A stretch of 32,000 nt of DNA from Candidatus Omnitrophota bacterium (GTDB taxonomy: Bacteria; Omnitrophota; Gorgyraeia; Zapsychrales; JANLHA01): assembly GCA_963662715.1 (NCBI GenBank), contig OY759724.1, positions 1,050,001 to 1,082,000 of the forward strand, in the 5' to 3' direction. The position numbers and the translations under genes were made by a program. The notes beneath the pieces were generated by a model. It saw only the letters and a list, made by a program, of their open reading frames with translations. It was not told where the DNA came from and made no database searches. Every line of letters begins with the position of its first letter. The stretch's first letter is position 1. Shown here one piece after another: positions 4,591 through 31,990 of the stretch.

Positions 4591-4599
4591 AACAAATAA

Positions 4600-6771: not shown

Positions 6772-7560
6772 ATGAGGAACGGCATGAGAAATCAAAACGG
6801 ATTTTCACTAGTGGAGATGTTGGTCGCGATAGCAATTTTCACAACTGTTTCTGTCGCCGGCTTCCTCTTGTTTGTTGCGGGGAACAACGCCTGGTCTGTC
6901 ACAGACGCTAAAGTTCAAATGCAACAGAATCTGCGCCGGGCCCTCCAGCGCATCGGGACGGAACTTCAACAGTCCGGAGAAGACAGCAGCAGCGTATTAC
7001 AGGTCAGCATCCTTGACGGCACCGGAGTCAACGGCTCGGACATATTACGTTTTTCCATTCCGATATGCGTCTGCGGGGCGCAGGCGCTGGACCTAGACGG
7101 AAACATTCGTTTCTGGGGAGCGCCGCTCTCCTGGGGGAAGACAGGCTGCGGAGACAATTTCGTTTTAAACGGGAACAACAAAGTGGATATCTGTCACATT
7201 CCTCCCGGGAATCCCAGCAATGAGCAATCCATCGAAGTGTCCGTGAACGCCGTTAAGGCCCATTTGGCTCACGGAGATTATCTGGGAGCATGCGGCAGCT
7301 GCGACACATCGACATACACGAACAAAACGATCGAGTACCTTTTAAACAGCGACGGGCATCTTTTAAGGCAGGTATTAGACAGCACGAACAGCGTTCTGAC
7401 TTCGGATGTTTTTGCGCAGAATTTCTCCGATTTTCAGGTCAGCATAAACGCCGGCCAGAGCATTGTAACGTTAGATCTCGAACTTCAAAGAAAAGCTCCG
7501 CCTTTCGGACCGTTATCTTTGGACGGGAGTCTGGACGTAGTATTGAGGAATAAAAATTAA
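6772..7560 (+). CDS. Prepilin-type N-terminal cleavage/methylation domain protein (minor pilin-like, Cys-rich)
   Basis: Canonical QNG|FSLVEMLVAIAIFTTVSVAGF. The ATG directly abuts the stop of the previous gene. There are 9 Cys residues in the globular part. Confidence 0.8.
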   Translation: MRNGMRNQNGFSLVEMLVAIAIFTTVSVAGFLLFVAGNNAWSVTDAKVQMQQNLRRALQRIGTELQQSGEDSSSVLQVSILDGTGVNGSDILRFSIPICVCGAQALDLDGNIRFWGAPLSWGKTGCGDNFVLNGNNKVDICHIPPGNPSNEQSIEVSVNAVKAHLAHGDYLGACGSCDTSTYTNKTIEYLLNSDGHLLRQVLDSTNSVLTSDVFAQNFSDFQVSINAGQSIVTLDLELQRKAPPFGPLSLDGSLDVVLRNKN

Positions 7561-7561
7561 T

Positions 7562-16409: not shown

Positions 16410-18209
16410 ATGAACAAAGTTCATATATTGTCACCTGATATTATCGCAAAAATCGCCGCGGGAGAAGTCGTGGAGCGCCCGGCATCCGTGTTAAAGGAAC
16501 TTATGGAAAACGCGCTTGATGCCGACACGCAATCCATCGACGTGCACCTGAAGCAGGCCGGAAAAATTTATCTTTCGATCAAAGATAGCGGGACCGGCAT
16601 ATCGGAAGAAGATATTGAAAAAATTTTTCAAAGGCATTCTACCAGCAAAATTTCCTCTCCGGAGGATCTCTTCCGGATTCATTCTCTGGGGTTCCGGGGG
16701 GAAGCCCTTTACAGTATCGCGGCCGTATCGGATATCGTGTTAAGAAGCCGTCCGCAAGACCAGGAGGCCGGATGGGAAATTCATTTGCGGGGGGGAGAAA
16801 AGCTTGGCCTGAAACCCGCGGCCATGCCGGTCGGGACAGAGATCGAGGTCCAGGAACTCTTTTTCAATACTCCGGCCCGAAGAAAATTTTTAAAGTCCAA
16901 CACAACGGAATTGAACCAGATCCTTAACATTTTTATCCCTTATACATTACTGTATCCTCATATCCGTTTCGTTCTCACGCACGGGGAGAAACCGCTTCTC
17001 GACCTGGCGCCGGGGAACCAGCTACGGGCACGCATAGCCGAAGCCCTCAACTTAAACGAAGAACACCTCCTGGAACTGAGCCACACCTTCGAACAAGAAG
17101 CCATTACGGTCCGTGCCGTCCTGGGAGATATCAATATCCACCGCTCCCGCAGGGACATGCAGTTTCTCTTTATTAACAACCGTCCCGTGTTCAGCAAGGT
17201 CCTGAGCTTTCATCTGAATCAAGTCTACCGTCTGATCTTGCCTGACGGGTCTTTCCCCTTCTTCGCCCTTTATATCGACATGCCGGCTGAAGACGTCGAT
17301 GTCAATATTCATCCCACCAAACGGGAAGTCAAAATCAGGGATGAACAAAGTCTGGCAACCCTTCTAAGGCATATGTGCGAAAACGCGCTCCTTTCCGGAG
17401 GATCGGCCAAACAGGCTGTTGCCCGGGACGAAGGCCCTTCATCATCACGACCCTCGTTCGTTCAACAGGCCCTGTCGGGGACGGCGCAGCAAGCAGGAGA
17501 GGAAACGAGAATGTCTTTTGTGCAACAGGGGGAGGAAAAGGCCGTAAAACACTTCCGCCTTTCGCCTACGGAACAATATTCTTTCCCGGAGAAAAAGCAT
17601 CCCGGCCTTCAGGGGGAACCCCTTCTTTTTAAAAAACAGGACAATCTGCCGTCCCGACTGGGCCGGGCCCGTTTCGTCGGAACTTTTATCAATAAATTTC
17701 TGTTTTTTGAAGAAGACCGTTCGCTGCTCGTGATAGACCAACATGCCGCTCAGGAACGGATCACGTTTGAACAGCTTGTGCAGCAGATGGAAAAGGGGCA
17801 GATTGAAGTTCAGAATCTTTTAAGCCCGTATCTTCTGGAACTTTCCCCGCAGGACATGCTTTCCTGGGAAGAAGCCCAGCCGGCGCTTGACCAGATAGGC
17901 TTTTCTTCGACGCAATTCGACGAACAGACCGTCGCCATTCATTCCTACCCTGTCCTTATTAAAGATCCGGCCAAAGCCGTCTGTGATCTTCTGGCCGGAG
18001 GGGATTTCGCCCGCTGTGATCATGAAACCATGGCCAGGAGAGCCTGCCGGTCCTCTATTATGGCCGGCGATAAACTCAACCCGGAACAATGTGAATTTTT
18101 ACGCCGGCAGCTGCTCAAATGCCGGGATCCTTTTACTTGCCCTCACGGCCGCCCCACGGTCATGGAACTTAAGGAAGACTTTTTGGATAAACAGTTCTTA
18201 CGCACATAA
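16410..18209 (+). CDS. mutL: DNA mismatch repair protein MutL (endonuclease-type)
   Basis: 599 aa. GHKL ATPase N-terminus (IAAGEVVERPASVLKELMENALDA, DSGTGI). C-terminal endonuclease motifs DQHAAQERITFE and FTCPHGRP. GGAGA RBS 10 nt upstream. Confidence 0.97.
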   Translation: MNKVHILSPDIIAKIAAGEVVERPASVLKELMENALDADTQSIDVHLKQAGKIYLSIKDSGTGISEEDIEKIFQRHSTSKISSPEDLFRIHSLGFRGEALYSIAAVSDIVLRSRPQDQEAGWEIHLRGGEKLGLKPAAMPVGTEIEVQELFFNTPARRKFLKSNTTELNQILNIFIPYTLLYPHIRFVLTHGEKPLLDLAPGNQLRARIAEALNLNEEHLLELSHTFEQEAITVRAVLGDINIHRSRRDMQFLFINNRPVFSKVLSFHLNQVYRLILPDGSFPFFALYIDMPAEDVDVNIHPTKREVKIRDEQSLATLLRHMCENALLSGGSAKQAVARDEGPSSSRPSFVQQALSGTAQQAGEETRMSFVQQGEEKAVKHFRLSPTEQYSFPEKKHPGLQGEPLLFKKQDNLPSRLGRARFVGTFINKFLFFEEDRSLLVIDQHAAQERITFEQLVQQMEKGQIEVQNLLSPYLLELSPQDMLSWEEAQPALDQIGFSSTQFDEQTVAIHSYPVLIKDPAKAVCDLLAGGDFARCDHETMARRACRSSIMAGDKLNPEQCEFLRRQLLKCRDPFTCPHGRPTVMELKEDFLDKQFLRT

Positions 18210-21200
18210 AATACCCGAAAGATGATCGCGGCCCTCTGAATGACCTGTTCCTTGCTGCAGCAGAGCTTAAAAAGGAAAACCGGAAAATAATTTTCCAAAT
18301 GATCTTTTAAAAACTGCTGTCTCTTCCATCCCTGCCAGAATAACCATGTTTCCTGCAGGCTCTTGGCATACCGTCCTTCTCTCCACTGAAAATGCAGCCG
18401 TTCCATCATCCACAGGACCTGACGTCTGCTAAAAAACAGGACCTCTTTAAAAATATTATTTAACGCCAACAATGCAAAAGCCTCGACATCCTTAAAAAAT
18501 TCGTCTTTATCCGCCGGCGGGCTTAAGCCCGTGCTGGCATAATTATGTTTATCATAGACCACCCGTATGACCTCCTGTTGAAATATTCCGGAGAATCTCG
18601 GAGGCGGGATAATGTTCCCAAATTTGGCAAAAAACAACTCCGTTGTTCGCGTCAGCAAAAACCAATTGAGCCCGGAGGATACCGGGATAGCCGGAGGCAC
18701 TTCCTTGGATAGGCCGAAAGGAGCAAAAGGATTCATAAGGACAGGCGAAGACGGCATCAGTGTCGGCATAAGCAGCTCCGGTATCAGGACGTTCACCGGC
18801 GGCAGGATTTCTCTGTTTTTCTTCTGGCTCTTAACCGGCAACGATTCCACGACAATAGCCGCACCGACAGAAGAGGCTTTTTCCGTTCTCCGCGAAACAG
18901 GATAAGAACCTATCGCAAGAGCCGCTCCGGCACGGACTTTCCGGGGATGTTTTGTAACCTGCCGGCCTTCCGGAGACGGGGCGGAAAGAACCACCGTGGA
19001 TCCCTGCGCTCCGTCTGCTTTATCCCGAATGGGATAAGCCCCTATCATGAGGGCGGCACCGGCACGGAATTTCCGGGCCGACTTTATCTCCGGCGTTCCT
19101 TTAGACACCTGATCCAAAGAAATAAGCCGCAATGAACTGGGGCTGGGGTATTCTGAAGAATCCGGCCTGGCATGTTTTATCCGGACAAAAGCCGTATCGA
19201 CAGCCGCCTCCAAATATATGAAAAGGCGGAAAAACTTATTCAATAAATATATAAGATACTGTAACAACTGATGGAAAAACGCCCTGGCCTTTGATAATAA
19301 CAGCGGCAGGTCAATCCATACAACCTGCTCATCTTCCTCTTCATCAACAATATCAGGGAAAACAAGTGAAATTTCTTGATACTTTTTATTCACAGCAACA
19401 ACATTTGTTGTCGCCGGATTGATCTCCATAAAAATTGTGGGCAGGCCATTCTTCCGGGGGTAAAACATCCAGAAAATAATAACCGCTTTATGAAAAATAT
19501 GTCCTTTATGGCAGCAAAACCTGAAAAGGAAGACCGGAAAATAATGTTCCAAATGCTCTTTCAAAAACTGCTGCCTCTCCCACCCCTGCCAAAACAACCA
19601 TGTTTCCTGCAGGCTTTTCACTAGGCGGCTTTCTCTCCACAGGAAAGGAAGGTGTTCTGTAATCCGCCGGACTTGCCGTCCGGCCATAAACATCGCTTCT
19701 TTAAACGACCGCTCAAAACCCCAGCGGGGTTCCGTAAAAAACCGCCTCAGCGCTCCGGATCCTAATGCCCCAAAGGATTCTTCTTCCTTCGTCCATGACC
19801 GCAGGCGGGACAGCCTTTTCCCGTACCGGTCATCCGGCCACGGGTTCATAGTCATACCGGAAGGGAAAAAAATGGCAGGTGTCTTAAAATAAAAACCTCC
19901 CCGAATCCTTGTGTCTTTTTCTTGTCCGGCAGCAGCAGAAAAAGCAGGAAGAACAGCAGACCGGTAACCGGAAGGCCTCTGCTGAAGCTGAAAGGCCAGG
20001 GGCTGCCTGTGGGCCTTTTCCTGAAACGGACGGAGAAACAGAGATTGGGGAAGGACAGAAATTCGCCGGGAATTCTTTTTCAGCGGAGTCAGCGACACAA
20101 AAGAGTTACGGCGTCCTCTGTTGGGAGACCTGGCTTCGGTTTTATGCCGCTGTGATATCCATTCATGTAATAATTTATACATCCGTTCACGAATGACCTG
20201 CTCCCTATTCTTAAGTTGTGTTCCCCAGAAAATCTCCGGCAGCGGATCCGGGACATAGGGATCGCCGAGAATGATAACTTCACCCCAAACCGTTGAGACA
20301 GAAATATCGAACGGACGCTCTTTTATTTCCATATCAAGACCGAATAATAACACCTCAAAAATCTGTTCCGGAATTTCATGATACCATGACCACAAGGAAA
20401 ATTCTCCGGGCCCCAAGCTCCCTGTTGCCGTTTCTTGAATCTTCACAATGGGAAGCCATTCCCCTTTTCCGGCCTCCGGAAAAGTATATAAAGACGGCCC
20501 GCGCTGCATAGGTGACGGAACAGCCGGCGCCTTTATCCTGACAGCCCCTGTAAAAATACGGCCGACCGGCTCAGAGTAAGAAGCAGGCCCGTATCTTACT
20601 AACACATGGTCTAAAAACTTTAATGCCAACAATTCTTCCGGCAGGCTTTCCTCGGGTTTATTGTAAAAACGCTGAACAGGGGGCAGGCATGTCTCTTCAT
20701 AAACAGCAAAGGAAGGAACCTGGTATAACTCATCCGGGAGCTGTTGGGACTTATATGAATAATACAGCCAGTCCCGTGTGCCTAATAAAACCGTATTATC
20801 ATTCAAGGATAGGCGCTCCAGCTGACACGCCTGCAAAACCGATAAAGCGGGTTTATAAACAGGTTTCTGAAACTGAAGGGGTGAAGATATTTTTCCGTGT
20901 GTTTTATTATCTTTAACTGCTTTCAATCGGCCGGGATCCCGGAGCATAAACGGTTCCGGCACCAATGTCAACCTCTTCATTTTCAATAAAATCTCTCTGA
21001 CAATTTCAAAATCGGCTTTATCGTTTGCGTCGATAAACAAAACGTTCCGCCGGCTCCGTTCAGTCTGAATGACAGGCAAGATAACCTGGCCATGTTCCCT
21101 GACCCGTCTATAGAATAATGAGAGACGTGGGTTGTTATATCGTTTGCGCTGAATCCACCGCTGTTTGGCTGTTTGCTTGGCCACGCCTAAATGCACAATC

Positions 21201-24200
21201 AAAGCCACCCTAAGCTTCTGCTCCTGTAAAACGTTCTTGAACAGCTGATAAGACTCTGCTGTCTTGGGAGAAGTATCAAGCACCAGCCCCCGGGACACAT
21301 CATGTTCTTTCAGCCACTCTGCCAATAAATCCGAATAGATAACCGCGTCGCTGATTTTTGCTCTTTTTCGCATGCCGGAGTCTGCTTGTCTTTTCTGAAC
21401 TTCTAAGCGAATCCTTTCCCCAAAAGAAAGGAACGGTAAACCGAAGTGGTCTGCCATTTTTTGACCGACGGTGGTCTTCCCGGAACACGGCAGGCCCATC
21501 AACACGACAACCGAAGCGTCGGGACGAGCAACCGGAGATGAGACGCTGAAGGGAAGATGCCCGTTAGCAGCGATCAGTCTCCGGGCATCTTTCTGGGCCT
21601 TTAACAGCTCCTGAACAAGATGGCCTTTATTATAAGCGTTCCCCTGAACCGCATCCACGGCATAATCAACGATGGCTTTAAGCTGAGAAGATTTTACCAG
21701 GACAAACCGCCGGGCCATCCAGACCATGTCTTGCGGCTGGGCATTGAGCAATTGATAATAACCGTTACGCCATTTCGGACTAAAAATCTTATTCCGATAC
21801 GGCCCAATAAGTTCACTTCTTTCTTCTCCCATGAAAGCTCCGCCCATATCAAAAAATATAAAAGGATTCGCTCCCTCGCCTTTAAATATGTGGTCCGGAG
21901 TCCTGTCCCAGTTATCAATCACCCTGTCGACAAATTCCACGCCCTGCAAAATCCTGAGCATGCCCGGGGTCAGCCCTTCCGTCACTTCTTCCCAGGTCAA
22001 AGTCGGCAAATCTATAAACGGCATAAGGATAATCTGAGAAAATGCCCGGGAGACCAGATGGGCTTCGGTCGTGGGGATGCCCATAAGGCGGAACAGGCGT
22101 TCGCCGATAATATTAGGGACCAGATGATCGGCATCAATGTATTTGGCAACGTAACGTTCATGCGTTTTTCGATGTTCATAAAGAATCGTGATTTGGGCTC
22201 TCGTCAGGAAACCGAGGAACTGAAAATCCTCCATATCGACCGGCAGGGGCGCCCGTCCGCCGCAGGCCGCCTCTGCCGGTGTGATACGGTTAATCTTCAT
22301 GCGGAAGGTTTCCAGATCATCTTTTAAAATATCCGGCCAGGATTGCCCCGCGGTCCCGTCAATCAACAGCTTGCGGGGCTGGGCCTCCTCATCGACATTT
22401 TGAATGGGCGACGACTCTGCCCGGCGGCCCCGGTCTTGGATGATATCGCTGTCAAGACGCAGGTCCTCGGGGACAGAGGTCTTTCCGGCGATCCTTTCAA
22501 TCATAGGGTTGAAAAAGCGGGCTTTTTCAACAACCTCATGAGGTTCATCCAAATCCCTGTAATTCGAAAGCATGTTTGCGATAAACAGCACAGCAGTGGC
22601 CAGCTGTTCGTCTATGGCGGCCACCGCAACCTGGTTATCCAGATGCGTCCTGAATAAATCTCCTGAAACAAGAAAGGCAAAATCCATCGCATGTATTCCC
22701 AGGGCAGAAAAAACACGCTGTAATGATAAATACTTCATTCCGGAAAACGCGACGTCATCCATAAAAAGGACAGGCATGGCTTTCAGGGCAGAAAAAACGT
22801 CCTGCGCTTGTATTCTTTCAAGGCCGGTCTGCTGCTGAATATCCGTTAAAATCATATCAATCAATAATTTCTTATTTGCATGAACGTGTTGGCTAACAGA
22901 CTTCAGGACTCTTTTTCTCTGCCGGGCTGTGATGTTCTCCGGATGAAGATCAAATGTCTTAATAAGATTTTTATACAGTATATTATTCGTTTCGGGACTC
23001 AGCCAAAGGGTTCCCGGCATGGGTGCATCGCCGTAGGTGTTTTCCCAGGCCACATGGATAAACGCAAATGTCATTGAAGCACTTGAGCCTGAGAGAATAA
23101 TAAGCGAGACCTTTTGCTGATAAATATGCTGAACCATTTTCAGGGCTGCCCGGTAAGCCCCTTCCATAGCAACTTCAAAATCTTCAAGATTAAGCAATAA
23201 CGGTTCCGTTCCCGGAACAGGTGTTCCTGCCGCGCTTTTCCCCCGCACCCCCTTTACGGCTCTGCCTGGCAAAACGGCCGGACGAATTCGAGGCGCGTGC
23301 TGAGGGCTCTTCCCGGGGCTTGAAATCCATGACATTGTTGCATCTTTAAAAACTATCCAGGCCGGCTTAATAAAGGGGATAAATGCCGGGACTTGTCTCA
23401 TGTAGGACAAATACGCCTCCCCGTACTTCAACCATAAAGAATATTCCTCGAGGCGAATACGGAGAATATTCTGCAGGATAAACATGACGATAAACAACAG
23501 TGTTAAAGGACTCGGGATAAAAGCAAGGACGCTTGTGAACAAAACAAGCTGCAAAGCATACTCTGGATGCCGAACCCATTTATAAGGACCGTGTGTCGTC
23601 GGTTCAGACGAAGTGATACTACGATTCCAATCAGCCCAGCGGTTTATCCATAATATTCCTAACCCGCTCAAGACACCGGTAAAAATTCCGCTCATGATTC
23701 TTATGCCGAATCCCGTAAAATCATCCGGGCGGGCCAGACCAAAAGGCACGTGAGCGTCAGGACAGACTAAAAACAAGATAGCGGCGGCAGGCAGCATGAA
23801 TAAGAAAATAAATCTGTTGAGGAATTGCCAGAACCTGCTGTCAAGGGGATGAGTCTGGAGTTTACGACGGAGCTGTTCGCGTTCATGGCTGGTTTTGCAG
23901 GTTTTCCAAGGACGAATTGTCCGGAAAGACATAACCTTATACAAGGAATCAAAACTGCGGCGCAATTCATGATCCGGTCGGAAAAGGATGAAAAGTATGT
24001 CTGCCGCTGAACGGGATATTGTTAAAAGACCGGTGATCACAAGGAATCCGGACAGGGCGGCGTGCCCGGAGAAGAAGGATAAGATAAGAGAAAAGCTGCC
24101 GACGGCCAAAGAAACGGCAACGCCGCTGACCATGCTGAAAGCCTGGCGGGAAGGAGACGCTTGGCTTATACTGACTTTCCCGGAAAAAACACCCCGGGCC

Positions 24201-27200
24201 TGCCGTTTGATTTCCGATAATCCGCGTTTAAAACCGTAAGCCGTGATAAGATGAACTGCTTCCTCTACCCCGACCAGTGTCGGCAGCCACAGCCATTTCC
24301 GGAAGAGCGGCGGCAGTCGGCTGAATGATTCGGAACGGACAAAATTATCCGAAACGGCAACCGTTTCTTGATAATCTGCCCCGTCTTCAGCTTCCTGTTT
24401 CCTTTGAACGGTCTTTGGAGTATTTGTCCTTCGGCCGGCATTCCGGGCATAAATATTAAAAGTGCCTGTGGGGTCAAAACCCAAATTCCTTATCAGTCTA
24501 ATGTAATTATCATATCCCGCCTGCGTCCCTGTTATAAAAACGGCCATGATTTCAAGATGAAATCGCGGGCCGTAGCGTTCAACAAAAGCTTTTAACAGCA
24601 AGGGCCCCAGCCCCTGGCCGCGATATCGCGGATCGACTTCCAGGGTATCTATATGAAAACCGTCCTGGCCCAGTTCCCGGGTTCTAAAAGCCCAAAGAAC
24701 CGCCTTGGGCCGGGCAGGCTCTCCAATATAGAATAAAACCGCTTTCTTTCTAAAACCATGATACCGTCTTATTACAGGCTCCCAGGAGAACTGATCCTGC
24801 AGCAGGACATCGCGGTCCGCTGTATAAAACCAATTCCCTAAGACCTTCAAAACATCCCCCCGGCACACGGTTGCTGTCAGAACAGTGTTCTCTTGCGTAT
24901 CCGGATGAGTAACCGTAAACATCCGGTCTTTCTCTCCCCGAATGACTTCTGCAACCCTTACGACCCCTCCCCAGACAGCTCCGGCGATGGCTCTGACAAG
25001 AACTCTCATCGGGCTCGAAACATTGCCTTGAACCGAAACAGCCCGGGCTTCCCGTGCCGGCATGAACGCATAGATAGCTGCACGTTCCCCGTAAGAATAT
25101 CCGTTCATGCTTTCTTGAGCTGTTTTATAGCCCGGAGGGCTTAAACCTGTACGGGTAAAATTATGATTCGAATCAACCGCTTTGATCATCGCCTCTTTAA
25201 AGCCCCGGATGAAGCGTTGATAGAGGATCATGTTTTCAGATAACACATTGTCTGTAGAACGGTGTTTTCTTTTATCTTGACCTTTACCTTGTTGTCCTGA
25301 TATCTCCCGAAGTACCGTAATGCTTGCCTGAGCTTGATAAGGGGTTCCCGGCCAAGAAGCGGGCGCGGGGATAAATGGGGATCCTTCCTTAGATAAACCA
25401 AAAGGCATGACAGGGTTTATGAGTATCGGCGAAGAAGGTGCGGCCTTTGGCATGAACAGATCCGGCAACAATACTTTCACCGGCGGAGCAGGCAGACGTC
25501 TTTCCGGCAATTTATCCAGATATTCCGCCCAAACATCATCTTTTTCATTTATGATCGGGGATGATGCCGTAGCGACCGTCGCGCCGACAGGTGACGAACT
25601 GATCAATTTGCTTTCCTCCTGCTCCCTGATATACTCCGCCCACACCGGGTCATGCTCATTTATGATCGGGGACGATGCCGTAGCGACCGTCGCGCCGACA
25701 GGTGACGAACTGATCAATTTGCTTTCCTCCTGCTCCCTGATATACTCCGCCCACACCGGATCATGTTTATTGATAAGAGGAGAAGATGTCATCGCCACTG
25801 TTGCCCCCACAGGGGTCGTCCGTGTCTGCATTGTGTTACGACGATTCTGGTCAACAACCTCTAAGGAAATCAACCGTAGCGAACTGCCGGAGTCCCGGGA
25901 CTGTTTACAACCGGCTTGTCTTATCTGCACGGCGGCTGTATGAACGGCTGCTTCAAAATACAGGAAGAAACTCAATGCTTTGTTTATTAAATAAATAAGA
26001 TATTGTAAAAGCTGGTGGAATAAACCCGCGATCTTGGACAATAAGGCAGGGACGTCGATAAAGATAAGCCGGGTGGCCTTTTCTTCATCGGCGACATCCG
26101 GAAAGCCGAATGTCGCTTCTCGATATTCTTTATTTACGATAACAATATTGACTATCCCCTGCGTTTTTTCAGCGGCCTTTGGCATTTTGATATGCTGACG
26201 ATCGCCCATCAAACCCGGATCTTTTTCTATCGCAGTCTTTTTGATAAGCGGTGAACTTGACGGAGTTTCCACAGACAAGGACAATAACTCATCAACACCT
26301 TCCATCTCCTCCTCAAACTGTTCCAGCCGGAAATCGAGGAAAACATCTTTTCGCGCATCCTGCTCATCCTCCAGCATAATAAAGAAATGCTTGCCGGCGT
26401 AATACCGGGCATAGGGTTTCAAAGTTTCAATACAGTAAATCCTCGGGATATGGTGCCCCAGCATATTCAAGGCTTGAGCCAGGGTTGCGTTAATAAAGAC
26501 ACAATATCCCGACAAAGAAATAAAGGACGGCAGGTGTCTGGCCATGATCTTCTGTATTTTCCGGACCTGCCCGGTTAACCTTAAATCCACAAGCTCTGTG
26601 TTCCCTGTCTCCATATCATGAATCATCGATCGATACGCCTCTGCCAATCGGCTGTCCTTCTGAATATTAACAACAAGCTTTTCTATCCGCTCCCTTGCCT
26701 GTCCGGATAAATATTTCCTCGCCATGGGATTATCCCCTGCCAGACGTTCAAGCTGCCGCCGCTCCAGGAAAAGATACCGCATCATCATCGAAGATGAAGA
26801 ACAATCCGAGCCGGCATCCTCGAGGGATGTCTCGGAATGATGTCCGAATGATTTCAAATACCCTGTTAAATAATACGTCGGAATGGTTCTGGCCAGGAAG
26901 TCTTCCCCAAAATGTTCCCGGAGACGGGACCTGTCTCCCTGCCAATGCCTGATCATCCTCATATATAATAATTTTTTCTGTAAATACGTCCTTAAAATAT
27001 CCAGGTAATGCTGATAAAGGTCTGCCTGCTTCATCCCGGCATTCCTTATTTTCCCTTTCTTGGCCACATGAATTCCAAGGTCACGGCAGGCCGCAACCAA
27101 TGTCTGACGCATAAATTTACTCGGAAATCCCTGCAAACGGCTCAACCAGCCTCCCTGGTCATCAGGAACAAAAATATATCCTTTAGCGGTGAGCTCTTTC

Positions 27201-30200
27201 ATGGCTTTGATCCAGAGGATTTTCTTTTCGGACACTTCCGTAAAAGACAGCCGTCCGAAGTCCCTCAACAAGGATCCCCAAAGAGCCCTGATTTCATTTC
27301 CTTCGGTCAAAACGCCGCTTTCAGGCTCATATTCCTCTGCCAGGGATTTCAAAGCCAAAAGATCTTCTAGACGATCGAACAATTCTTCTATTTTTTCTTC
27401 CCGCGCATCCAGCTCCTTTACGGCTTGTTTAAATAAAGCGGCTTTCTCAATCAGCAGCAAAAAGAAGCGGTCCCGGACACCGGAGACAGAATATTCATTC
27501 TTGGGTTTCCTCTTGAAAGAATTCCTGCGTTTCTCTCGAACCATCCGCAGAACGCTTTTATTTATAACGAATGACGCCGAGATAGTTCCGTCATAATTAT
27601 CCAAATATCCGATTAATCTTTTAGACGTATCATCTTTGTTCACATACGCGTAAACATTGATAACAACTTTTGCCCCCTGTTTAACAAATTCTATGTCCGG
27701 GTGCTGTCCGCTTAAAAGCATGCTGAGGATACGGTCGCCGACAGAAATATTCCGGGCGTAAAAGAAATTCAAAACGCCCCTGTGGATGCGCTGCTGCAGC
27801 GTAAACCGGTGAGGCTCCTGCCTCCCCGGAACTGCGGCAAAATAGTCTCCCTGCATATACCTTAATGCATCCAGTTCGAGCTTTGAACGGATCTTGTATT
27901 TTCCTAGATCAACACCACGGAAATTCCTGACTTCCCCTGTCACGGGATCTTCATAATAATGATTTGTCACGACAAGCCTTCCCTCATGCTGCACACAGCA
28001 TTCCACCATCTTTATTTCGCGGACAGGATCAACAATTATATTGAAAAAGGCCCTCTTCCCGACATGTTCCCCTTTCGCACATACCGTGACAAAAGTCCTT
28101 TCACTGAGATGAGAAATGACAACCCGTCCATTCACGGAAATCCTGTCCTTTGTGGCAACGGCTGTGCGCTCTGTAAACGGATACGGCCGATGATTTAAGA
28201 ATTTCATAATATCCATCTCCCCTACCGAGGAAAGCCCGAAACTCGTGTTGCTATCGGCCAAGAAATAATGCCCTTCGCCCGTTACGGCATCCAGATAATA
28301 CAGCGCTTCGACCTTATAGTTCCCGCCGGCATCTTTTACCGAAATCTCTATCATCTCTCCCTGACTTACCGTATCGACAAGCTCAAACCGGACTGTCTGA
28401 TATCCGGCATTCCTGTCCTCCTGGCAGATATGAATATACCGCCGGTAGGCCGGCACCCACAGCCCTCCTTTATAAATTTTGTATCTCTCCTCAACCGGCC
28501 CTTCGTTTCTGATCCTGTAGGCGTAATAATGATAAAAATTACTAAAACTAAAACTGTTTAATTCTGCCAGAAGTCTGTCCGCGGGATACGGGGATATGAC
28601 ACCCGCTTGGGGAGCTGCGCTGTTTTTCATAAAACCAACTTCATGCCGCAGCCATTGACGGTAAATTTCCGGACTTTCTTCTTTTAACCGGTTTAAAAAG
28701 AGTTGGCTTTCAGTCGAAAGCAGGGCGCGGTACAGGAACCTCCGGCTCGTTGGGACCTTCCCGTTGCGTTTTAAGACACGGGCATATGAGACTAAACGCA
28801 CAGGTTCTTCCGACGATAAGACCTTTCTCAAAAGGGACGCTTCACAGGACGTTTCGCCCTTGTTCAAAGTCACAAAAACCGGCTCCACTTCGCTGACGCC
28901 CTGTTCAGCCATTTCCGCAAGAACGTCGTTCTTCAAGGCATCATCCGCAATGTCTTGGCCTTCGTTCTGGCTTTTCAAAGCCAATTTGTTTAACCTGTCG
29001 TTCTGTTTCTGACTGAGTGTTAACCTTTGCCATTGCCCGTCCTCCATTTTAAAAATCAACGAACTGTCCGCTGCGGGCTGGCTCACATCGTTTGTAACCG
29101 GAGAGCTCATCTTCTTTCCTGATATCCCGCTTTGACAGACCGGCCTGTCCTTGAGCTCTAGTCGTGATTTGCTGATATGCCGAGATATTTCCCCGATGGC
29201 TTGCGGGTATTGGTTCTCCCGGTCTTCCCGTCCGGCTTTCTTAAGGTAGGATTCAGCCATGTTTAAAGCCAAAGTGCTTTTGGAGCTGTGGCTGTAACAA
29301 TTAGCCAATTCAATCAGCAGTCCGAGACGAACTTTCTGGTCTTCACATAATTCCAAAGCCTTTTCATAACAGACAATCATTAAGGGCAGACCGGCAGCCT
29401 GTCTGTAAAATTCTCCCAGCAATTTATACAGATCTACGGCTGCTGCATGTCCGATATCCAAAGCCTGCCCGACCATGCTTAAAGCGTCTCCCTCAACGGC
29501 GGCAGAGTCTTTCCCTTGCCGCAGTAATTGATAATAAGCAAAAGCGCCCATAGCGCATAAATCCGCAATTTGGGCAGGATGCTTAGCGTCCGTCTTCTTA
29601 ATAGCTTCTTTTAACAGGCCGAGCCCGGTAGACCAGTTTTTTACCGCAAATTTTTCTTTGGCCAGTTCAACAAAAGCTTCACTTGAACTGTTGATTAAAT
29701 CCAGTTTTTTCTGCATGGACGGCAAACTTTCCGTGAGTCCTAGCGCTGCAAAGATTTCAATATATAAATGGTAAATTTCTGCGGTATATATCTTCCACTC
29801 AACCCAGGGAGCGATAAGGTCGGCCGCATTAAAAAGGGCGTCCACCGCATGAGGCCGCTGCCTTGATTTCATAAGCATTTCATAGCGTGCCATCAGAATA
29901 CGGGTATGGACGGTGCTCATCTCAAACAGGATATATCTAAAATGATCCTGAGCCCAGGCAACATCATCGGTGTGCATACGATCCTGAATCTGAGCAATAA
30001 ACTGTAAGGATTTTTCAAGATAGGCCTCGATTAAGAAATCCTCCTTATCGGCATCGCTCCTGTGCCGGGAGAGATGGAGCTGTTCCCGGGCCAGCATTTC
30101 ATAAATCTTAGCCGCACTTAAAAGCACGTCCATTCTCTGCGGATAAAGCGCCACAGCCCGGTCAATATATATCTGACTCCGGGTCCACAATTTCTCCCGT

Positions 30201-31990
30201 GTATCAGGATCAGTTTCCTGACCTGCCAGGTTTGAGTATAAAAGGGCCAAAGCGCAATGCGCGAGCCCCAGGAGAGGATCTTTATCAACCGCGCGAAGTA
30301 AATAAGATTCTCTTTGTTTCACGCTGTCGCAACTGGCAGCCCTGTTGAAGTCAAGAAGCGCCGGGAAAGATACTCCGGCCCATCGGGACCAGGGAAGGCG
30401 TTCCAACTGTTCGGAAGACATAAAGATAATCTTTTGGCTCCGCTGATCCTCACCGATAACGGCAATCATAAGACTGTCATAGGATTTCTTAAAGTCACGG
30501 TTCATAAGATCGAGGGTCAAAATACGATCTTCGTCCAGCCCGACAATAACGATAACATGCCATGTTTCATGATATCTATGCTCCATCGCGTTCACCGGCA
30601 CAACCCTGGCTTCAAATCCGCTTTCCCGGGCTATTTCGTGATAAATAACAGAAAAGACCAGACAGTTGGCCATATTTAGTTTCATAAAGACTTCGATATC
30701 TCCCTTGGCATTTCTGGTCGAAGGAACCGGGAAAACATTAAACTGCAAAATGTCAAACCAGAATCGGGCGATATCATTGAGGAACAAGGTTGCTTTTTCA
30801 TCGTCCTCCATTTCTTGGACACGGGTTCTGATTCTTCGGGAAATATCATTTAAAGTTAAATTTTTAAACTGCCCGGAAAGAATCTCAGGGGAGTCCGAAG
30901 ACATGAGTTCAGGAATAACGGCCCGGATATTGTCCGGCACAACGTCGGCAAATGTCCGGTAACGAAGAAGCCATAACGGCAGACGCTGATGAACGGCCTC
31001 AAGCAATTCTGTCCTGTGATATTCGTCCAGCACCGGAGAAGATCCAGGAATAAAACCAGCCGCTGCCACCGGTGCTGCCATAAGGATGCTTTTTTCAATT
31101 TCCACGGCGGCAATTTTATCCGTCAGAACGTTAAAGGCATTCAAAGGAACAACACTTTCGTTCCTGGTGGATAACCGCACATCTTTCAGTTGTTTGTGCC
31201 AGAATCCCCCGGAGTTGGCCGTCATGTTGCTTATAATGCACGTTCTGCAATCAGCGTCGGCCAGCATCCGGACAAACGTTCTCAGCAGATTTGTCCCGTA
31301 ACGGGAACCCCGCCCGTGTGCATCCCGGGCGATAACAATGTAAAATAACTTGCCCTGCTTATCGCCTGTGTGGACATAATAGGTCAGCTGCCCGACAACT
31401 TTCCCGCCCCGGGCCATGATAAGGATATCCTGCACAAAGTCATCAGCCAAAAGCCCGATACCATAATCCAGCGGCGGCTCAACATCTCCTTCGTGCAATC
31501 GGTATTCTCTGGGGAAGGAACTTTTGCCGTTATTTCCTAATGCTTGATATAGAGATAAAACATGGATATCGTCATCTCTTCTTGTTGATAAAATAAACTT
31601 CCCGTATAATCTGGCGGCGTCACTTAAAAGCCTGATGTTCGCAAATTCGGAAAACCGGTATTCCTCATCCAGCGACAATACCTTGCTGATGAATTGAGAA
31701 TCACTAAAACAGCTATTTCTGTCGACCTGAACGACGGCATCGAATGCCCGCCCTTTCACCCCTGTCCCTTCCTCTGAAGCAAGAATTCGCATTAATACCT
31801 CACCGACACCCTGACCGAATGAAGAGGCCGTCTGAGCCAAGGATTCCAGTGTCTGAAGCTTTTCAGAAAAATATAATTCTTCCCACCTCGTTTTGATCTG
31901 ATAGACAATCGGCTCCTCCTTCCCCTTCGCAGCGTCTTTTGTCACCGGGGAAGAATGATATTCTGCTGACATTCCAGCCATTGAGGACAT
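18143..31990 (-). CDS. Giant multi-domain protein (>=4,615 aa), unknown function; concatenated enzyme-like modules; 5' end possibly beyond the window
   Basis: A single frame is open for 13,848 nt, from ATG at 31990-31988 to TGA at 18145-18143. There is no in-frame stop between the ATG and the window edge. Domain-like motifs are listed as the sub-features below. Confidence 0.9.
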   Translation of the reverse strand: MSSMAGMSAEYHSSPVTKDAAKGKEEPIVYQIKTRWEELYFSEKLQTLESLAQTASSFGQGVGEVLMRILASEEGTGVKGRAFDAVVQVDRNSCFSDSQFISKVLSLDEEYRFSEFANIRLLSDAARLYGKFILSTRRDDDIHVLSLYQALGNNGKSSFPREYRLHEGDVEPPLDYGIGLLADDFVQDILIMARGGKVVGQLTYYVHTGDKQGKLFYIVIARDAHGRGSRYGTNLLRTFVRMLADADCRTCIISNMTANSGGFWHKQLKDVRLSTRNESVVPLNAFNVLTDKIAAVEIEKSILMAAPVAAAGFIPGSSPVLDEYHRTELLEAVHQRLPLWLLRYRTFADVVPDNIRAVIPELMSSDSPEILSGQFKNLTLNDISRRIRTRVQEMEDDEKATLFLNDIARFWFDILQFNVFPVPSTRNAKGDIEVFMKLNMANCLVFSVIYHEIARESGFEARVVPVNAMEHRYHETWHVIVIVGLDEDRILTLDLMNRDFKKSYDSLMIAVIGEDQRSQKIIFMSSEQLERLPWSRWAGVSFPALLDFNRAASCDSVKQRESYLLRAVDKDPLLGLAHCALALLYSNLAGQETDPDTREKLWTRSQIYIDRAVALYPQRMDVLLSAAKIYEMLAREQLHLSRHRSDADKEDFLIEAYLEKSLQFIAQIQDRMHTDDVAWAQDHFRYILFEMSTVHTRILMARYEMLMKSRQRPHAVDALFNAADLIAPWVEWKIYTAEIYHLYIEIFAALGLTESLPSMQKKLDLINSSSEAFVELAKEKFAVKNWSTGLGLLKEAIKKTDAKHPAQIADLCAMGAFAYYQLLRQGKDSAAVEGDALSMVGQALDIGHAAAVDLYKLLGEFYRQAAGLPLMIVCYEKALELCEDQKVRLGLLIELANCYSHSSKSTLALNMAESYLKKAGREDRENQYPQAIGEISRHISKSRLELKDRPVCQSGISGKKMSSPVTNDVSQPAADSSLIFKMEDGQWQRLTLSQKQNDRLNKLALKSQNEGQDIADDALKNDVLAEMAEQGVSEVEPVFVTLNKGETSCEASLLRKVLSSEEPVRLVSYARVLKRNGKVPTSRRFLYRALLSTESQLFLNRLKEESPEIYRQWLRHEVGFMKNSAAPQAGVISPYPADRLLAELNSFSFSNFYHYYAYRIRNEGPVEERYKIYKGGLWVPAYRRYIHICQEDRNAGYQTVRFELVDTVSQGEMIEISVKDAGGNYKVEALYYLDAVTGEGHYFLADSNTSFGLSSVGEMDIMKFLNHRPYPFTERTAVATKDRISVNGRVVISHLSERTFVTVCAKGEHVGKRAFFNIIVDPVREIKMVECCVQHEGRLVVTNHYYEDPVTGEVRNFRGVDLGKYKIRSKLELDALRYMQGDYFAAVPGRQEPHRFTLQQRIHRGVLNFFYARNISVGDRILSMLLSGQHPDIEFVKQGAKVVINVYAYVNKDDTSKRLIGYLDNYDGTISASFVINKSVLRMVREKRRNSFKRKPKNEYSVSGVRDRFFLLLIEKAALFKQAVKELDAREEKIEELFDRLEDLLALKSLAEEYEPESGVLTEGNEIRALWGSLLRDFGRLSFTEVSEKKILWIKAMKELTAKGYIFVPDDQGGWLSRLQGFPSKFMRQTLVAACRDLGIHVAKKGKIRNAGMKQADLYQHYLDILRTYLQKKLLYMRMIRHWQGDRSRLREHFGEDFLARTIPTYYLTGYLKSFGHHSETSLEDAGSDCSSSSMMMRYLFLERRQLERLAGDNPMARKYLSGQARERIEKLVVNIQKDSRLAEAYRSMIHDMETGNTELVDLRLTGQVRKIQKIMARHLPSFISLSGYCVFINATLAQALNMLGHHIPRIYCIETLKPYARYYAGKHFFIMLEDEQDARKDVFLDFRLEQFEEEMEGVDELLSLSVETPSSSPLIKKTAIEKDPGLMGDRQHIKMPKAAEKTQGIVNIVIVNKEYREATFGFPDVADEEKATRLIFIDVPALLSKIAGLFHQLLQYLIYLINKALSFFLYFEAAVHTAAVQIRQAGCKQSRDSGSSLRLISLEVVDQNRRNTMQTRTTPVGATVAMTSSPLINKHDPVWAEYIREQEESKLISSSPVGATVATASSPIINEHDPVWAEYIREQEESKLISSSPVGATVATASSPIINEKDDVWAEYLDKLPERRLPAPPVKVLLPDLFMPKAAPSSPILINPVMPFGLSKEGSPFIPAPASWPGTPYQAQASITVLREISGQQGKGQDKRKHRSTDNVLSENMILYQRFIRGFKEAMIKAVDSNHNFTRTGLSPPGYKTAQESMNGYSYGERAAIYAFMPAREARAVSVQGNVSSPMRVLVRAIAGAVWGGVVRVAEVIRGEKDRMFTVTHPDTQENTVLTATVCRGDVLKVLGNWFYTADRDVLLQDQFSWEPVIRRYHGFRKKAVLFYIGEPARPKAVLWAFRTRELGQDGFHIDTLEVDPRYRGQGLGPLLLKAFVERYGPRFHLEIMAVFITGTQAGYDNYIRLIRNLGFDPTGTFNIYARNAGRRTNTPKTVQRKQEAEDGADYQETVAVSDNFVRSESFSRLPPLFRKWLWLPTLVGVEEAVHLITAYGFKRGLSEIKRQARGVFSGKVSISQASPSRQAFSMVSGVAVSLAVGSFSLILSFFSGHAALSGFLVITGLLTISRSAADILFILFRPDHELRRSFDSLYKVMSFRTIRPWKTCKTSHEREQLRRKLQTHPLDSRFWQFLNRFIFLFMLPAAAILFLVCPDAHVPFGLARPDDFTGFGIRIMSGIFTGVLSGLGILWINRWADWNRSITSSEPTTHGPYKWVRHPEYALQLVLFTSVLAFIPSPLTLLFIVMFILQNILRIRLEEYSLWLKYGEAYLSYMRQVPAFIPFIKPAWIVFKDATMSWISSPGKSPQHAPRIRPAVLPGRAVKGVRGKSAAGTPVPGTEPLLLNLEDFEVAMEGAYRAALKMVQHIYQQKVSLIILSGSSASMTFAFIHVAWENTYGDAPMPGTLWLSPETNNILYKNLIKTFDLHPENITARQRKRVLKSVSQHVHANKKLLIDMILTDIQQQTGLERIQAQDVFSALKAMPVLFMDDVAFSGMKYLSLQRVFSALGIHAMDFAFLVSGDLFRTHLDNQVAVAAIDEQLATAVLFIANMLSNYRDLDEPHEVVEKARFFNPMIERIAGKTSVPEDLRLDSDIIQDRGRRAESSPIQNVDEEAQPRKLLIDGTAGQSWPDILKDDLETFRMKINRITPAEAACGGRAPLPVDMEDFQFLGFLTRAQITILYEHRKTHERYVAKYIDADHLVPNIIGERLFRLMGIPTTEAHLVSRAFSQIILMPFIDLPTLTWEEVTEGLTPGMLRILQGVEFVDRVIDNWDRTPDHIFKGEGANPFIFFDMGGAFMGEERSELIGPYRNKIFSPKWRNGYYQLLNAQPQDMVWMARRFVLVKSSQLKAIVDYAVDAVQGNAYNKGHLVQELLKAQKDARRLIAANGHLPFSVSSPVARPDASVVVLMGLPCSGKTTVGQKMADHFGLPFLSFGERIRLEVQKRQADSGMRKRAKISDAVIYSDLLAEWLKEHDVSRGLVLDTSPKTAESYQLFKNVLQEQKLRVALIVHLGVAKQTAKQRWIQRKRYNNPRLSLFYRRVREHGQVILPVIQTERSRRNVLFIDANDKADFEIVREILLKMKRLTLVPEPFMLRDPGRLKAVKDNKTHGKISSPLQFQKPVYKPALSVLQACQLERLSLNDNTVLLGTRDWLYYSYKSQQLPDELYQVPSFAVYEETCLPPVQRFYNKPEESLPEELLALKFLDHVLVRYGPASYSEPVGRIFTGAVRIKAPAVPSPMQRGPSLYTFPEAGKGEWLPIVKIQETATGSLGPGEFSLWSWYHEIPEQIFEVLLFGLDMEIKERPFDISVSTVWGEVIILGDPYVPDPLPEIFWGTQLKNREQVIRERMYKLLHEWISQRHKTEARSPNRGRRNSFVSLTPLKKNSRRISVLPQSLFLRPFQEKAHRQPLAFQLQQRPSGYRSAVLPAFSAAAGQEKDTRIRGGFYFKTPAIFFPSGMTMNPWPDDRYGKRLSRLRSWTKEEESFGALGSGALRRFFTEPRWGFERSFKEAMFMAGRQVRRITEHLPFLWRESRLVKSLQETWLFWQGWERQQFLKEHLEHYFPVFLFRFCCHKGHIFHKAVIIFWMFYPRKNGLPTIFMEINPATTNVVAVNKKYQEISLVFPDIVDEEEDEQVVWIDLPLLLSKARAFFHQLLQYLIYLLNKFFRLFIYLEAAVDTAFVRIKHARPDSSEYPSPSSLRLISLDQVSKGTPEIKSARKFRAGAALMIGAYPIRDKADGAQGSTVVLSAPSPEGRQVTKHPRKVRAGAALAIGSYPVSRRTEKASSVGAAIVVESLPVKSQKKNREILPPVNVLIPELLMPTLMPSSPVLMNPFAPFGLSKEVPPAIPVSSGLNWFLLTRTTELFFAKFGNIIPPPRFSGIFQQEVIRVVYDKHNYASTGLSPPADKDEFFKDVEAFALLALNNIFKEVLFFSRRQVLWMMERLHFQWREGRYAKSLQETWLFWQGWKRQQFLKDHLENYFPVFLFKLCCSKEQVIQRAAIIFRVFYVRKNCLSKKSSLSSMTVGRP
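18187..18452 (-). repeat. Dispersed intragenic module B, copy 2 (C-terminal end of the giant ORF)
   Basis: FKEVLFFSRRQVLWMMERLHFQWREGRYAKSLQETWLFWQGWKRQQFLKDHLENYFPVFLFKLCCSKEQVIQRAAIIFRVFYVRKNCL. About 85% nucleotide identity to copy 1 over the central ~90 nt, judged by eye. Confidence 0.8.
18496..19429 (-). repeat. Dispersed intragenic module A, copy 2
   Basis: VNKKYQEISLVFPDIVDEEE..IDLPLLLSKARAFFHQLLQYLIYLLNK..YLEAAVDTA..SSLRLISLD, then the tandem repeats, then IPELLMPTLMPSSPVLMNPFAPFGLSKE, then KHNYASTGLSPP. Collinear with copy 1, which lies about 6.7 kb away. Confidence 0.8.
18815..19078 (-). repeat. Degenerate in-frame 132-bp (44-aa) two-copy tandem repeat inside the giant ORF
   Basis: ARKFRAGAALMIGAYPI... 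and PRKVRAGAALAIGSYPV... The ggataag anchors at 19032 and 18900 are exactly 132 nt apart. Confidence 0.55.
19440..19705 (-). repeat. Dispersed intragenic module B, copy 1 (Trp/Cys-rich WLFWQGW module)
   Basis: FKEAMFMAGRQVRRITEHLPFLWRESRLVKSLQETWLFWQGWERQQFLKEHLEHYFPVFLFRFCCHKGHIFHKAVIIFWMFYPRKNGL. Confidence 0.8.
20990..21515 (-). other. Giant ORF domain: adenylate-kinase-like P-loop NMP kinase
   Basis: VVVLMGLPCSGKTTVGQKMADHFGLPFLSFGERIR (P-loop at 21471-21497) and GLVLDTSPKTAESYQLF. These parallel the AK motifs GxPGxGKgT / hlStGdllR / GfilDGfPRt. Confidence 0.6.
21560..22255 (-). other. Giant ORF domain: atypical kinase-like fold (PI3/4-kinase- or HipA-like)
   Basis: ERYVAKYID (Lys), IIGERLF (Glu), catalytic-loop-like VIDNWDRTPDHIF, and DFG-like FIFFDMGGAF (21834-21931). 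Confidence 0.45.
22640..23215 (-). other. Giant ORF domain: phosphoribosyltransferase (type I PRTase)-like
   Basis: VSLIILSGSSASMTF plus a PRPP-loop-like VLFMDDVAFSGMKYL: four hydrophobic residues, two acidic residues, then a small-residue loop. Motif-level call only. Confidence 0.35.
23350..24150 (-). other. Giant ORF domain: multi-pass membrane ICMT/PEMT-like methyltransferase
   Basis: About 5-6 hydrophobic helices (VSGVAVSLAVGSFSLILSFF, LSGFLVITGLLTI, FIFLFMLPAAAILFLV, IMSGIFTGVLSGLGILWI, LQLVLFTSVLAFIPSPLTLLFIVMFIL). The family signature is HGPYKWVRHPEYALQL...RIRLEEYSLWLKYGEAYLSYMRQVPAFIPF. Confidence 0.65.
24440..24925 (-). other. Giant ORF domain: GNAT acetyltransferase 2
   Basis: FHIDTLEVDPRYRGQGLGPLLLKAFVERYG (textbook GNAT motif A) followed by YIRLIRNLGFDPTG (motif B-like). 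Confidence 0.7.
25126..26185 (-). repeat. Dispersed intragenic module A, copy 1 (FHQLLQYLIYL module)
   Basis: VNKEYREATFGFPDVADEE..IDVPALLSKIAGLFHQLLQYLIYLINK..YFEAAVHTA..SSLRLISLE, then the tandem repeats, then LPDLFMPKAAPSSPILINPVMPFGLSKE, then NHNFTRTGLSPP. Confidence 0.8.
25518..25816 (-). repeat. In-frame 111-bp (37-aa) tandem repeat, ~2.7 copies, inside the giant ORF
   Basis: Units 25551-25661 and 25662-25772 differ at only about 5 of 111 nt. The encoded unit is PVGATVATASSPIINEHDPVWAEYIREQEESKLISSS. The flanking copies are more diverged. Confidence 0.9.
26320..26520 (-). other. Giant ORF domain: transglutaminase/papain-like Cys-His-Asp core 2
   Basis: LSGYC(1830)VFINATLAQALNMLGHHIPRIYCIE...GKHFFIMLEDEQDARKDVFLDF. 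Cys codon at 26501-26503, His at 26387-26389, Asp at 26333-26335. Same spacing logic as core 1. Confidence 0.45.
27565..28420 (-). other. Giant ORF region: three related beta-rich modules
   Basis: Each module ends in a similar hairpin: KVEALYYLDAVTGEGHYF / LVVTNHYYEDPVTGEVRNF / RLIGYLDNYDGTISASF. The similarity was seen by eye only. Confidence 0.35.
29200..30310 (-). other. Giant ORF region: TPR-like / all-helical repeats (~370 aa)
   Basis: Repeated A/L/Y-rich helix pairs, for example LLRAVDKDPLLGLAHCALALLYSNL, YIDRAVALYPQRMDVLLSAAKIYEML, YEKALELCEDQKVRLGLLIELANCY. Confidence 0.5.
30500..30700 (-). other. Giant ORF domain: transglutaminase/papain-like Cys-His-Asp core 1
   Basis: NMANC(443)LVFSVIYHEIARESGFEARVVPV...HETWHVIVIVGLDEDRILTLDL. 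Cys codon at 30662-30664, His at 30556-30558, Asp at 30509-30511. TPR-like repeats follow it, a SirB1/YchA-like arrangement. Confidence 0.5.
31170..31560 (-). other. Giant ORF domain: GNAT-like acetyltransferase 1
   Basis: VVGQLTYYVHTGDKQGKLFYIVIARDAHGRGSRYGTNLLRTFVRMLAD is a beta-strand followed by an R/Q-x-x-G-x-G/A-like acetyl-CoA loop. Motif-level call only. Confidence 0.45.

Follow-up and report, generated by a model that had tools for sequence, protein, structure and literature searches.

A six-helix membrane block with an ICMT/PEMT-type core inside a giant multi-enzyme protein of Candidatus Omnitrophota

We analysed a 32,000-nucleotide stretch of the Candidatus Omnitrophota assembly GCA_963662715.1 (contig OY759724.1, positions 1,050,001 to 1,082,000), referred to below as the window. 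It contains a giant open reading frame (ORF) on the minus strand (18143-31990, ATG at 31990), which encodes at least 4,615 aa and is open at the window edge. In the middle of the encoded multi-enzyme protein lies a block of six hydrophobic helices. By the account that we consider probable, this block fuses two modules, a conserved two-helix module and a methyltransferase core of the ICMT/PEMT superfamily (isoprenylcysteine carboxyl and phospholipid methyltransferases), and the enzyme arrays on both of its sides lie in the cytoplasm.

The membrane block and its ICMT/PEMT-superfamily core

Positions 23350-24150 of the window (minus strand) encode residues 2614-2880 of the giant ORF. A preliminary description of the sequence had placed five to six strongly hydrophobic helices at about residues 2,610-2,880 and had seen no other obvious transmembrane (TM) segment; both observations were borne out. 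Hydropathy analysis identified six helices in the block. All 19-residue Kyte-Doolittle windows scoring at least 1.5 fell within residues 2619-2847, save a borderline segment at 2963-2981 that we read as buried core, and all windows with a Hessa-scale sum under 3 kcal/mol fell within residues 2623-2839. The two scales thus leave the block as the sole membrane-competent stretch of the visible giant protein.

The preliminary description had also assigned the whole block to an ICMT/PEMT-like enzyme. This assignment stands for the C-terminal part (23360-23866, minus strand; residues 2709-2877), where hidden Markov model (HMM), motif, structure and fold evidence agreed, and fails for the first two helices, which belong to a separate module. 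When a 400-aa fragment was searched against Pfam, PEMT (PF04191) scored 30.7 bits (gathering cut-off 25) and ICMT (PF04140) scored 30.2 bits (cut-off 24); with the whole giant protein as the query, the scores were 27.8 and 26.2 bits, both over the gathering cut-offs. Residues 2800-2875 contain the signature strings quoted earlier, HGPYKWVRHPEYALQL and RIRLEEYSLWLKYGEAYLSYMRQVPAFIPF. Alignment and hydropathy divided the core into TM3 (2725-2745), TM4 (2763-2784), a GPY..RHPEY segment (2801-2811), a TM5/TM6 hairpin (2812-2845), an EE pair (2848-2849) and a C-terminal helix.

To this core we aligned 116 ICMT-family members. All eight invariant columns of the resulting 117-sequence alignment are kept in the window protein (G2801, R2807, H2808, P2809, E2848, E2849, Y2860 and P2872). 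They include the R, H and P of the RHPEY motif (23558-23572, minus strand; residues 2807-2811), which is predicted to lie in a cytoplasm-facing loop, and both residues of the EE pair in the RIRLEE motif (23444-23449, minus strand). Sequence matches in the PDB were AtTam46 (8xku_G, E = 1e-9), Tribolium ICMT (5v7p/5vg9, E = 3e-5) and Methanosarcina Ma-ICMT (4a2n, E = 5e-5, over chain residues 34-191), and the core agreed residue by residue with 5V7P, 5VG9 and 8XKU in the alignment. An AlphaFold2 model built on the family alignment gave a predicted local distance difference test (pLDDT) score of 70-92 across residues 2709-2872. The top Foldseek matches of the core were ICMT-superfamily folds, namely Tam46 (8xku_G), delta-14 sterol reductase (4quv) and ICMT (5v7p), with probabilities of 0.98-1.0. 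Profile, conserved-motif and multi-pass-fold evidence therefore all placed the core in the superfamily and confirmed that it is a real ICMT/PEMT-superfamily domain, an observation well past chance. Because every invariant family residue is kept, the core is most likely an active methyltransferase dependent on S-adenosylmethionine. By analogy with the family, its acceptor would probably be a membrane-embedded lipid or lipid-like molecule.

The core was then compared with its relatives, as the preliminary description had proposed for stand-alone homologues. It shares with stand-alone ICMT/PEMT enzymes (PF04140/PF04191; 4A2N, 5V7P, 8XKU chain G) the GPY-x-W-x-RHPxY loop, the helical hairpin, the R-x-x-x-EE motif, the C-terminal G..Y..Y..P helix and the predicted fold. 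Unlike these relatives of about 190-250 aa, it lies some 2,700 residues inside a polypeptide that is at least 4,615 aa long and follows a fused, unrelated two-helix module. A crude hydropathy count found three hydrophobic segments ahead of the RHP motif in 92 of the 116 stand-alone homologues, compared with two in the window core, P0126 and P0212; the first helix that most stand-alone enzymes have thus seems to be missing from the embedded cores.

Embedding of an ICMT domain in a long polypeptide is rare. The 120 proteins listed from a word-indexed profile search were all 117-254 aa long, word-indexed searching with the membrane block returned only stand-alone proteins of about 200 aa, and the ORF at metagenome loci measured 95-417 aa in 19 of 20 cases and 931 aa in the remaining one. 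A HMMER search with residues 1941-3140 against 1.84 billion representative proteins recovered relatives module by module and no full-length relative. The closest ICMT relative in that library was itself a domain inside a giant protein, P0126 (4,042 aa), which matched over residues 649-758 (E = 1e-14, 37-40% identity). Our literature search on ICMT in giant proteins found nothing relevant.

The first two helices of the block, by the alignment of their relatives, form a separate conserved module that lies outside the methyltransferase (23933-24358, minus strand; residues 2545-2686). Its parts are an EEAVH helix, TM1 (2619-2642), TM2 (2646-2669) and a DHELRR motif. Seven other proteins contain the module, internally in P0127 (4,129 aa) and P0136 (5,538 aa) and at the C-terminal end in P0132, P0147, P0173, P0214 and the incomplete P0139. 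Pfam gave no match to it and a word-indexed protein search returned nothing; these relatives came from the HMMER search of the representative library. In the numbering of the eight-member alignment, the invariant positions are E43, H46, G52, Q63, G66, G70, V72, T123, H140 and E141, and the signature reads [H/E]ExxH ... G..G.V ... AGPLVS (at the start of TM1) ... Asp in TM2 ... HEL. Glu replaces the first His in seven of the eight members, including the window copy, and one member reads HEFIH; the Asp in TM2 is likewise found in seven of the eight.

The module is weakly site-2-protease-like. Candidate likenesses to site-2 protease/peptidase M50 (3B4R) are the [H/E]ExxH motif, G..G.V, AGPLVS at a TM start and an Asp in the next helix. 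Its best match, by both sequence profile (E = 1.9) and fold (E = 1.7, probability 0.35, TM-score 0.40), was the M. jannaschii site-2 protease 3b4r, and neither match was significant. Unlike that family, the window copy reads SGV in place of AGP and the module has just two full TM helices; site-2 protease cores have more than two. As a recurrent [E/H]ExxH two-helix element, it could act in cis as a protease or serve as an anchor. One of its carriers, P0132 (1,973 aa), also has an M48 (Ste24-type) peptidase and an ABC1 kinase. M48 peptidases and ICMT share the eukaryotic CAAX pathway, and the presence of M48 beside the two-helix module in P0132 may be coincidence.

The preliminary description had suggested checking whether the number of helices is even or odd. 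Six is even, and the Lys plus Arg counts were 7, 13, 2 and 5 in the putative cytoplasmic segments compared with 0, 1 and 0 in the putative periplasmic loops. Since the helix number is even and the positive-inside pattern strong, we infer an N-in/C-in topology, in which both flanking arrays and the active site would lie on one face, the cytoplasmic one. The hydropathy count given above, with two segments ahead of the RHP motif in the window core, also supports this topology. The RHPEY/EE site faces the cytoplasm in solved ICMTs (4A2N, 5V7P), and the flanking GNAT (acetyl-CoA) and adenylate-kinase-like (ATP) domains fit a cytoplasmic site. Each module would bring an even number of helices, the polypeptide would enter and leave the membrane on the cytoplasmic side, and the arrays of at least 2,540 residues upstream and about 1,730 residues downstream would both be cytoplasmic and tethered to the membrane by the block, with the methyltransferase active site facing them. 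A module with an even number of helices can be accommodated in a cytoplasmic polypeptide with its neighbours staying on their side of the membrane; an ICMT-type core trimmed to an even helix count could thus become an internal module of a giant and leave the flanking domains unflipped. Such trimming would be a simple rule for embedding membrane enzymes in cytoplasmic arrays.

Several points weigh against this account. Of the family models, only the C-terminal two-thirds are covered by the Pfam match of the core, and the Foldseek E-values of the core are weak (about 1e-2, with a TM-score of about 0.3). The core also belongs to none of the substrate-defined subfamilies tested, because their NCBIfam models scored far under their cut-offs: the isoprenylcysteine methyltransferase equivalog NF040696 gave 26.9 bits (cut-off 160), the lipid A 1-phosphate methyltransferase LmtA (TIGR04571) 31.9 bits (cut-off 325) and MddA (NF045656) 24.4 bits (cut-off 270). 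TM1 and TM2 were of low confidence in the first AlphaFold2 model and confident only in a second model of the module, built from eight sequences only (pLDDT 82, predicted TM-score 0.72). The evidence for the topology consists of hydropathy and the positive-inside rule. Finally, the N-terminus of the giant lies beyond the window and may carry further helices or have a signal peptide. The three codons between the ATG at 31990 and the window edge are stop-free, so the protein may begin further upstream. The earlier statement that about 2,600 residues lie upstream and that a signal peptide is absent accordingly holds for the visible part, whose N-terminus shows no signal peptide; the residue count is a lower bound, and both points are provisional as the ORF may run on past the window.

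Border peptides and possible processing of the giant protein

The tripeptide SSP is the most enriched 3-mer of the giant protein in an assumption-free scan. It occurs 16 times compared with 1.16 expected, and the highest count in 2,000 shuffles was 8; with tandem-repeat copies collapsed (13 sites), the Poisson p-value was still 4e-10. The residue that follows is V, I or L at 14 of the 16 sites (p = 9e-8). The remaining coding capacity of the window (4,899 aa) contains one SSP, which together with the shuffles and the Poisson test speaks against chance. The motif is also not a by-product of Ser/Pro-rich linkers: its flanks contain 6.5% Ser, and local composition predicts 0.14 motifs. A signal at the nucleotide level or an internal start was rejected as well. 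The codons at SSP sites vary synonymously, which indicates that the peptide, rather than the DNA or RNA, is under constraint, and the next codon is often CTT, GTT or GTC.

SSP lies in none of the seven recognised domains of the giant protein. The ICMT, adenylate-kinase-like, GNAT and downstream domains are each bracketed by SSP within 10-62 residues. A motif scan located one SSP at the upstream border of the unit formed by GNAT and the membrane block (25010-25018, minus strand; residues 2325-2327) and another 13 residues past the end of the ICMT core (23315-23323, minus strand; residues 2890-2892). The copies at 2890 and 3193 bracket the next domain, and those at 3484 and 3702 bracket the kinase. 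A 111-bp tandem repeat at window 25545-25813 (residues about 2060-2150; 2.0-2.3 copies, 98% identity) encodes a 37-aa unit, SSPVGATVATASSPIINEHDPVWAEYIREQEESKLIS, with two SSP per unit. A peptide of the form 'S-P-x...DPVW.AY', which resembles this unit, occurs in P0133.

Similar peptides were found in other giants. SSP is likewise enriched in P0126 (8 compared with 0.5 expected), and in P0130 each pair of the four Pfam domains is separated by exactly one motif. P0125, P0128 and P0232 have R[ST]E[VM]R instead; in P0125, RSEV occurs 9 times compared with 0.11 expected. A few residues past the conserved 'PEDLRLD' end of the shared downstream domain, the window protein has SSP, and at this position P0125, P0128 and P0232 have R-x-E-x-R. 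On the basis of this shared position, SSP and R-x-E-x-R are positionally equivalent 'dialects'. P0215 has a recurring inter-domain peptide of its own, DNANLSDADD[AT]S. The occurrence of such private peptides in other multi-enzyme giants suggests lineage-specific punctuation. Our literature search on SSP- or R[ST]E[VM]R-type motifs found nothing relevant.

Most simply, these motifs may be polyprotein processing sites, or conserved hinge or docking peptides. The preliminary description had raised the alternative that the membrane block is released by processing, and the SSP motifs at 2325 and 2890, which bracket the unit of GNAT and membrane block, offer a concrete lead for it. The giant would then be cut at SSP[V/I/L], and a membrane enzyme of about 565 aa (residues 2325-2889, comprising GNAT, the two-helix module and the ICMT core) would be freed, with other giants using R[ST]E[VM]R. 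We regard this as possible and on balance doubtful. The enrichment of SSP, the V/I/L preference, the selection at the peptide level and the position outside domains all argue for it, as do the spacing in P0130 and the orthologous domain that is followed by SSP here and by R[ST]E[VM]R in P0125, P0128 and P0232. The protein contains candidate cis proteases, namely the [E/H]ExxH module and a transglutaminase-like Cys-His-Asp domain (residues 415-487). However, SSP occurs once inside the ICMT loop of P0126, P0127 and P0136 have no enriched motif, and a conserved hinge, docking or modification motif would yield equal statistics. We also know of no protease with SSP or R[ST]E[VM]R specificity.

With unrelated enzyme modules in one ORF and a short recurring peptide between them, the arrangement recalls polyproteins of viruses and toxins such as the MARTX effector arrays, which an internal protease releases. 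Unlike MARTX-type polyproteins, the window protein contained no detected CPD or other known processing protease; unlike viral and toxin polyproteins, its gene lies in a chromosomal housekeeping context beside mutS and mutL, and its cleavage is putative. The fuller version of the idea is somewhat more tentative still: lineage-specific cleavage peptides would be SSP[V/I/L] in the window protein, P0126, P0130 and P0133, and R[ST]E[VM]R in P0125, P0128 and P0232, with the GNAT/site-2-protease-like/ICMT unit freed perhaps by the [E/H]ExxH or the transglutaminase-like domain. If true, it would supply a cleavage map so far lacking for Omnitrophota giants, whose cleavage points were stated as unknown by West-Roberts et al. 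(2023, doi 10.1101/2023.11.21.568195). Short lineage-specific border peptides of the SSP[V/I/L] or R[ST]E[VM]R type may mark cleavage or hinge points; they would permit a search of existing metaproteomes for neo-termini and a rational splitting of giants for structure prediction. We consider the punctuation motifs the part most worth pursuing, as they make the subdivision of giants testable.

Anchoring, orientation and membership in the Omnitrophota giant class

The ICMT-like core could also have lost catalysis and serve purely as an anchor or scaffold that tethers the enzyme array, in the manner of the ICMT-like Tam46, a subunit of the chloroplast Ycf2-FtsHi motor. Tam46, the best PDB sequence match of the core (E-value given above), is integral to that large membrane motor with an unproven enzymatic role, and the core reached none of the specific NCBIfam equivalogs. 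We nevertheless consider a dead anchor improbable: the retention of every invariant family residue is not expected of a mere anchor, and two hydrophobic helices would suffice for that purpose. Still less probable is an odd number of crossings, with the EEAVH helix inserted or 2812-2845 crossing otherwise and one enzyme array outside the cytoplasm as a result; published predictions put many domains of Omnitrophota giants outside the cell and HExxH helices of the site-2-protease type are membrane-embedded, but the EEAVH helix, with 13 residues in the AlphaFold2 model and a Hessa sum of +8.5 kcal/mol, has neither the length nor the low polarity for a seventh TM helix, the Lys and Arg distribution agrees with N-in/C-in, the GNAT and adenylate-kinase-like flanks use cytoplasmic acetyl-CoA and ATP, and the visible N-terminus lacks a signal peptide.

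A six-helix block between two arrays predicted to be cytoplasmic fits a class of proteins that has been described. Published Omnitrophota giants tile GNAT, methyltransferase, HD, HAD, glycosyltransferase, PGM, ROK, HATPase and LOG-type domains (doi 10.1101/2023.11.21.568195; doi 10.64898/2026.06.07.730766). 'TM-only' proteins make up 46% of a 916-protein catalogue and were read as membrane-anchored cytoplasmic arrays (Nielsen and Lui, 2026, doi 10.64898/2026.06.07.730766). Like the Archaeovorin-type giants of West-Roberts et al. and the class 1 'multi-enzyme metabolic clusters' of Nielsen and Lui, the window ORF tiles many unrelated enzyme domains; like the TM-only giants, it has TM helices within a soluble array and no signal peptide on the visible N-terminus. 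Internal duplications, nearby pilin-like genes and modules common to Omnitrophota-labelled proteins are further likenesses. Unlike catalogued giants, the visible 4,615 aa fall under the thresholds of 10-30 thousand aa, the ORF being open-ended.

The homology is module-wise. In local BLAST comparisons, each relative had exactly one module in common with the window protein. NCBI labels two of the module-sharing relatives Candidatus Omnitrophota, P0125 (4,930 aa) and P0130; P0126, P0127, P0128, P0136 and P0232 are unlabelled giants, and P0133, on a 2.7-kb contig, is labelled Desulfobulbaceae. Tiled enzyme domains, TM helices in a soluble array and module-wise homology to Omnitrophota-labelled giants were thus all found, and the protein fits the published multi-enzyme, TM-only class.

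The giant class itself is known; what is new here is a single membrane anchor in which a trimmed ICMT core is joined to the recurrent [E/H]ExxH two-helix module. In text searches, ICMT was unmentioned in West-Roberts et al. and in Nielsen and Lui, and PEMT and isoprenylcysteine were unmentioned in West-Roberts et al. Neither paper describes an inter-domain punctuation motif, and the terms 'motif', 'linker' and 'cleav' are absent from the text of Nielsen and Lui. The architecture would not surprise a specialist in Omnitrophota giants, and the embedding would be unusual to an ICMT specialist. If neither the motif lead nor the module lead holds, the finding is an unusual but unsurprising member of a described class.

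Other domains and genomic context

The giant ORF encodes two GNAT domains, a transglutaminase-like domain, TPR, the ICMT core, an adenylate-kinase-like domain and at least three conserved modules of no known function. The first GNAT domain lies at residues 188-253 (minus strand; 22.7 bits, cut-off 20.7). The transglutaminase-like (papain-fold) domain with Cys, His and Asp (window 30530-30748, minus strand) scored 21.1 bits, just under the Pfam cut-off of 23, and the TPR matches were weak. The second GNAT domain (24425-24874, minus strand; residues 2373-2522) lies directly upstream of the membrane block, as the preliminary description had it; Pfam Acetyltransf_1 matched residues 2441-2505 with 37.2 bits, and the longer homology span is shared with the GNAT modules of P0130 and P0133.

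After the membrane block comes a conserved domain without assigned function (22400-23248, minus strand; residues 2915-3197), which is common to P0124, P0125, P0128 and P0232 and has an invariant DD and a G.S motif across its giant or fragmentary relatives. By eye it resembled a phosphoribosyltransferase; the sole support was a PDB profile match with E = 1.5, and we keep this identity as a guess. The adenylate-kinase-like P-loop domain (20990-21511, minus strand; residues 3494-3667) was identified with Pfam/NCBIfam.

Three internal duplications were identified by sequence self-match: residues 5-119 with 954-1072, residues 1941-2289 with 4189-4495 (window 25123-26170 and 18506-19426, minus strand) and residues 4096-4181 with 4514-4599 (window 19448-19705 and 18194-18451, minus strand). 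Identity within the latter two was 33-47% and 64%, respectively. The duplications include a conserved, moderately hydrophobic helix, LLQYLIYL(I/L)NK. As residues 5-119 are similar to the internal segment 954-1072, the visible start of the giant could be an internal module border. The 13.8 kb without a stop codon and the module-by-module homology to several other giants led us to reject an artefactual ORF.

PADLOC and PHROGs scans gave generic kinase and acetyltransferase matches only, Rfam and tRNA scans found nothing, and one scan of viral contigs found no relatives. The genes around the giant are ordinary chromosomal genes, including mutS, mutL, pilin-like genes and a hybrid histidine kinase. 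mutL (16410-18209, plus strand) and the giant ORF (minus strand) overlap convergently at their 3' ends by 67 bp (18143-18209). A pilin-like gene cluster with an N-terminal methylation motif and DUF4900 lies at window 6319-9262, about 9 kb from the giant gene. Pilus or secretion genes often flank Omnitrophota giants in the published catalogues, and the cluster recalls these flanks.

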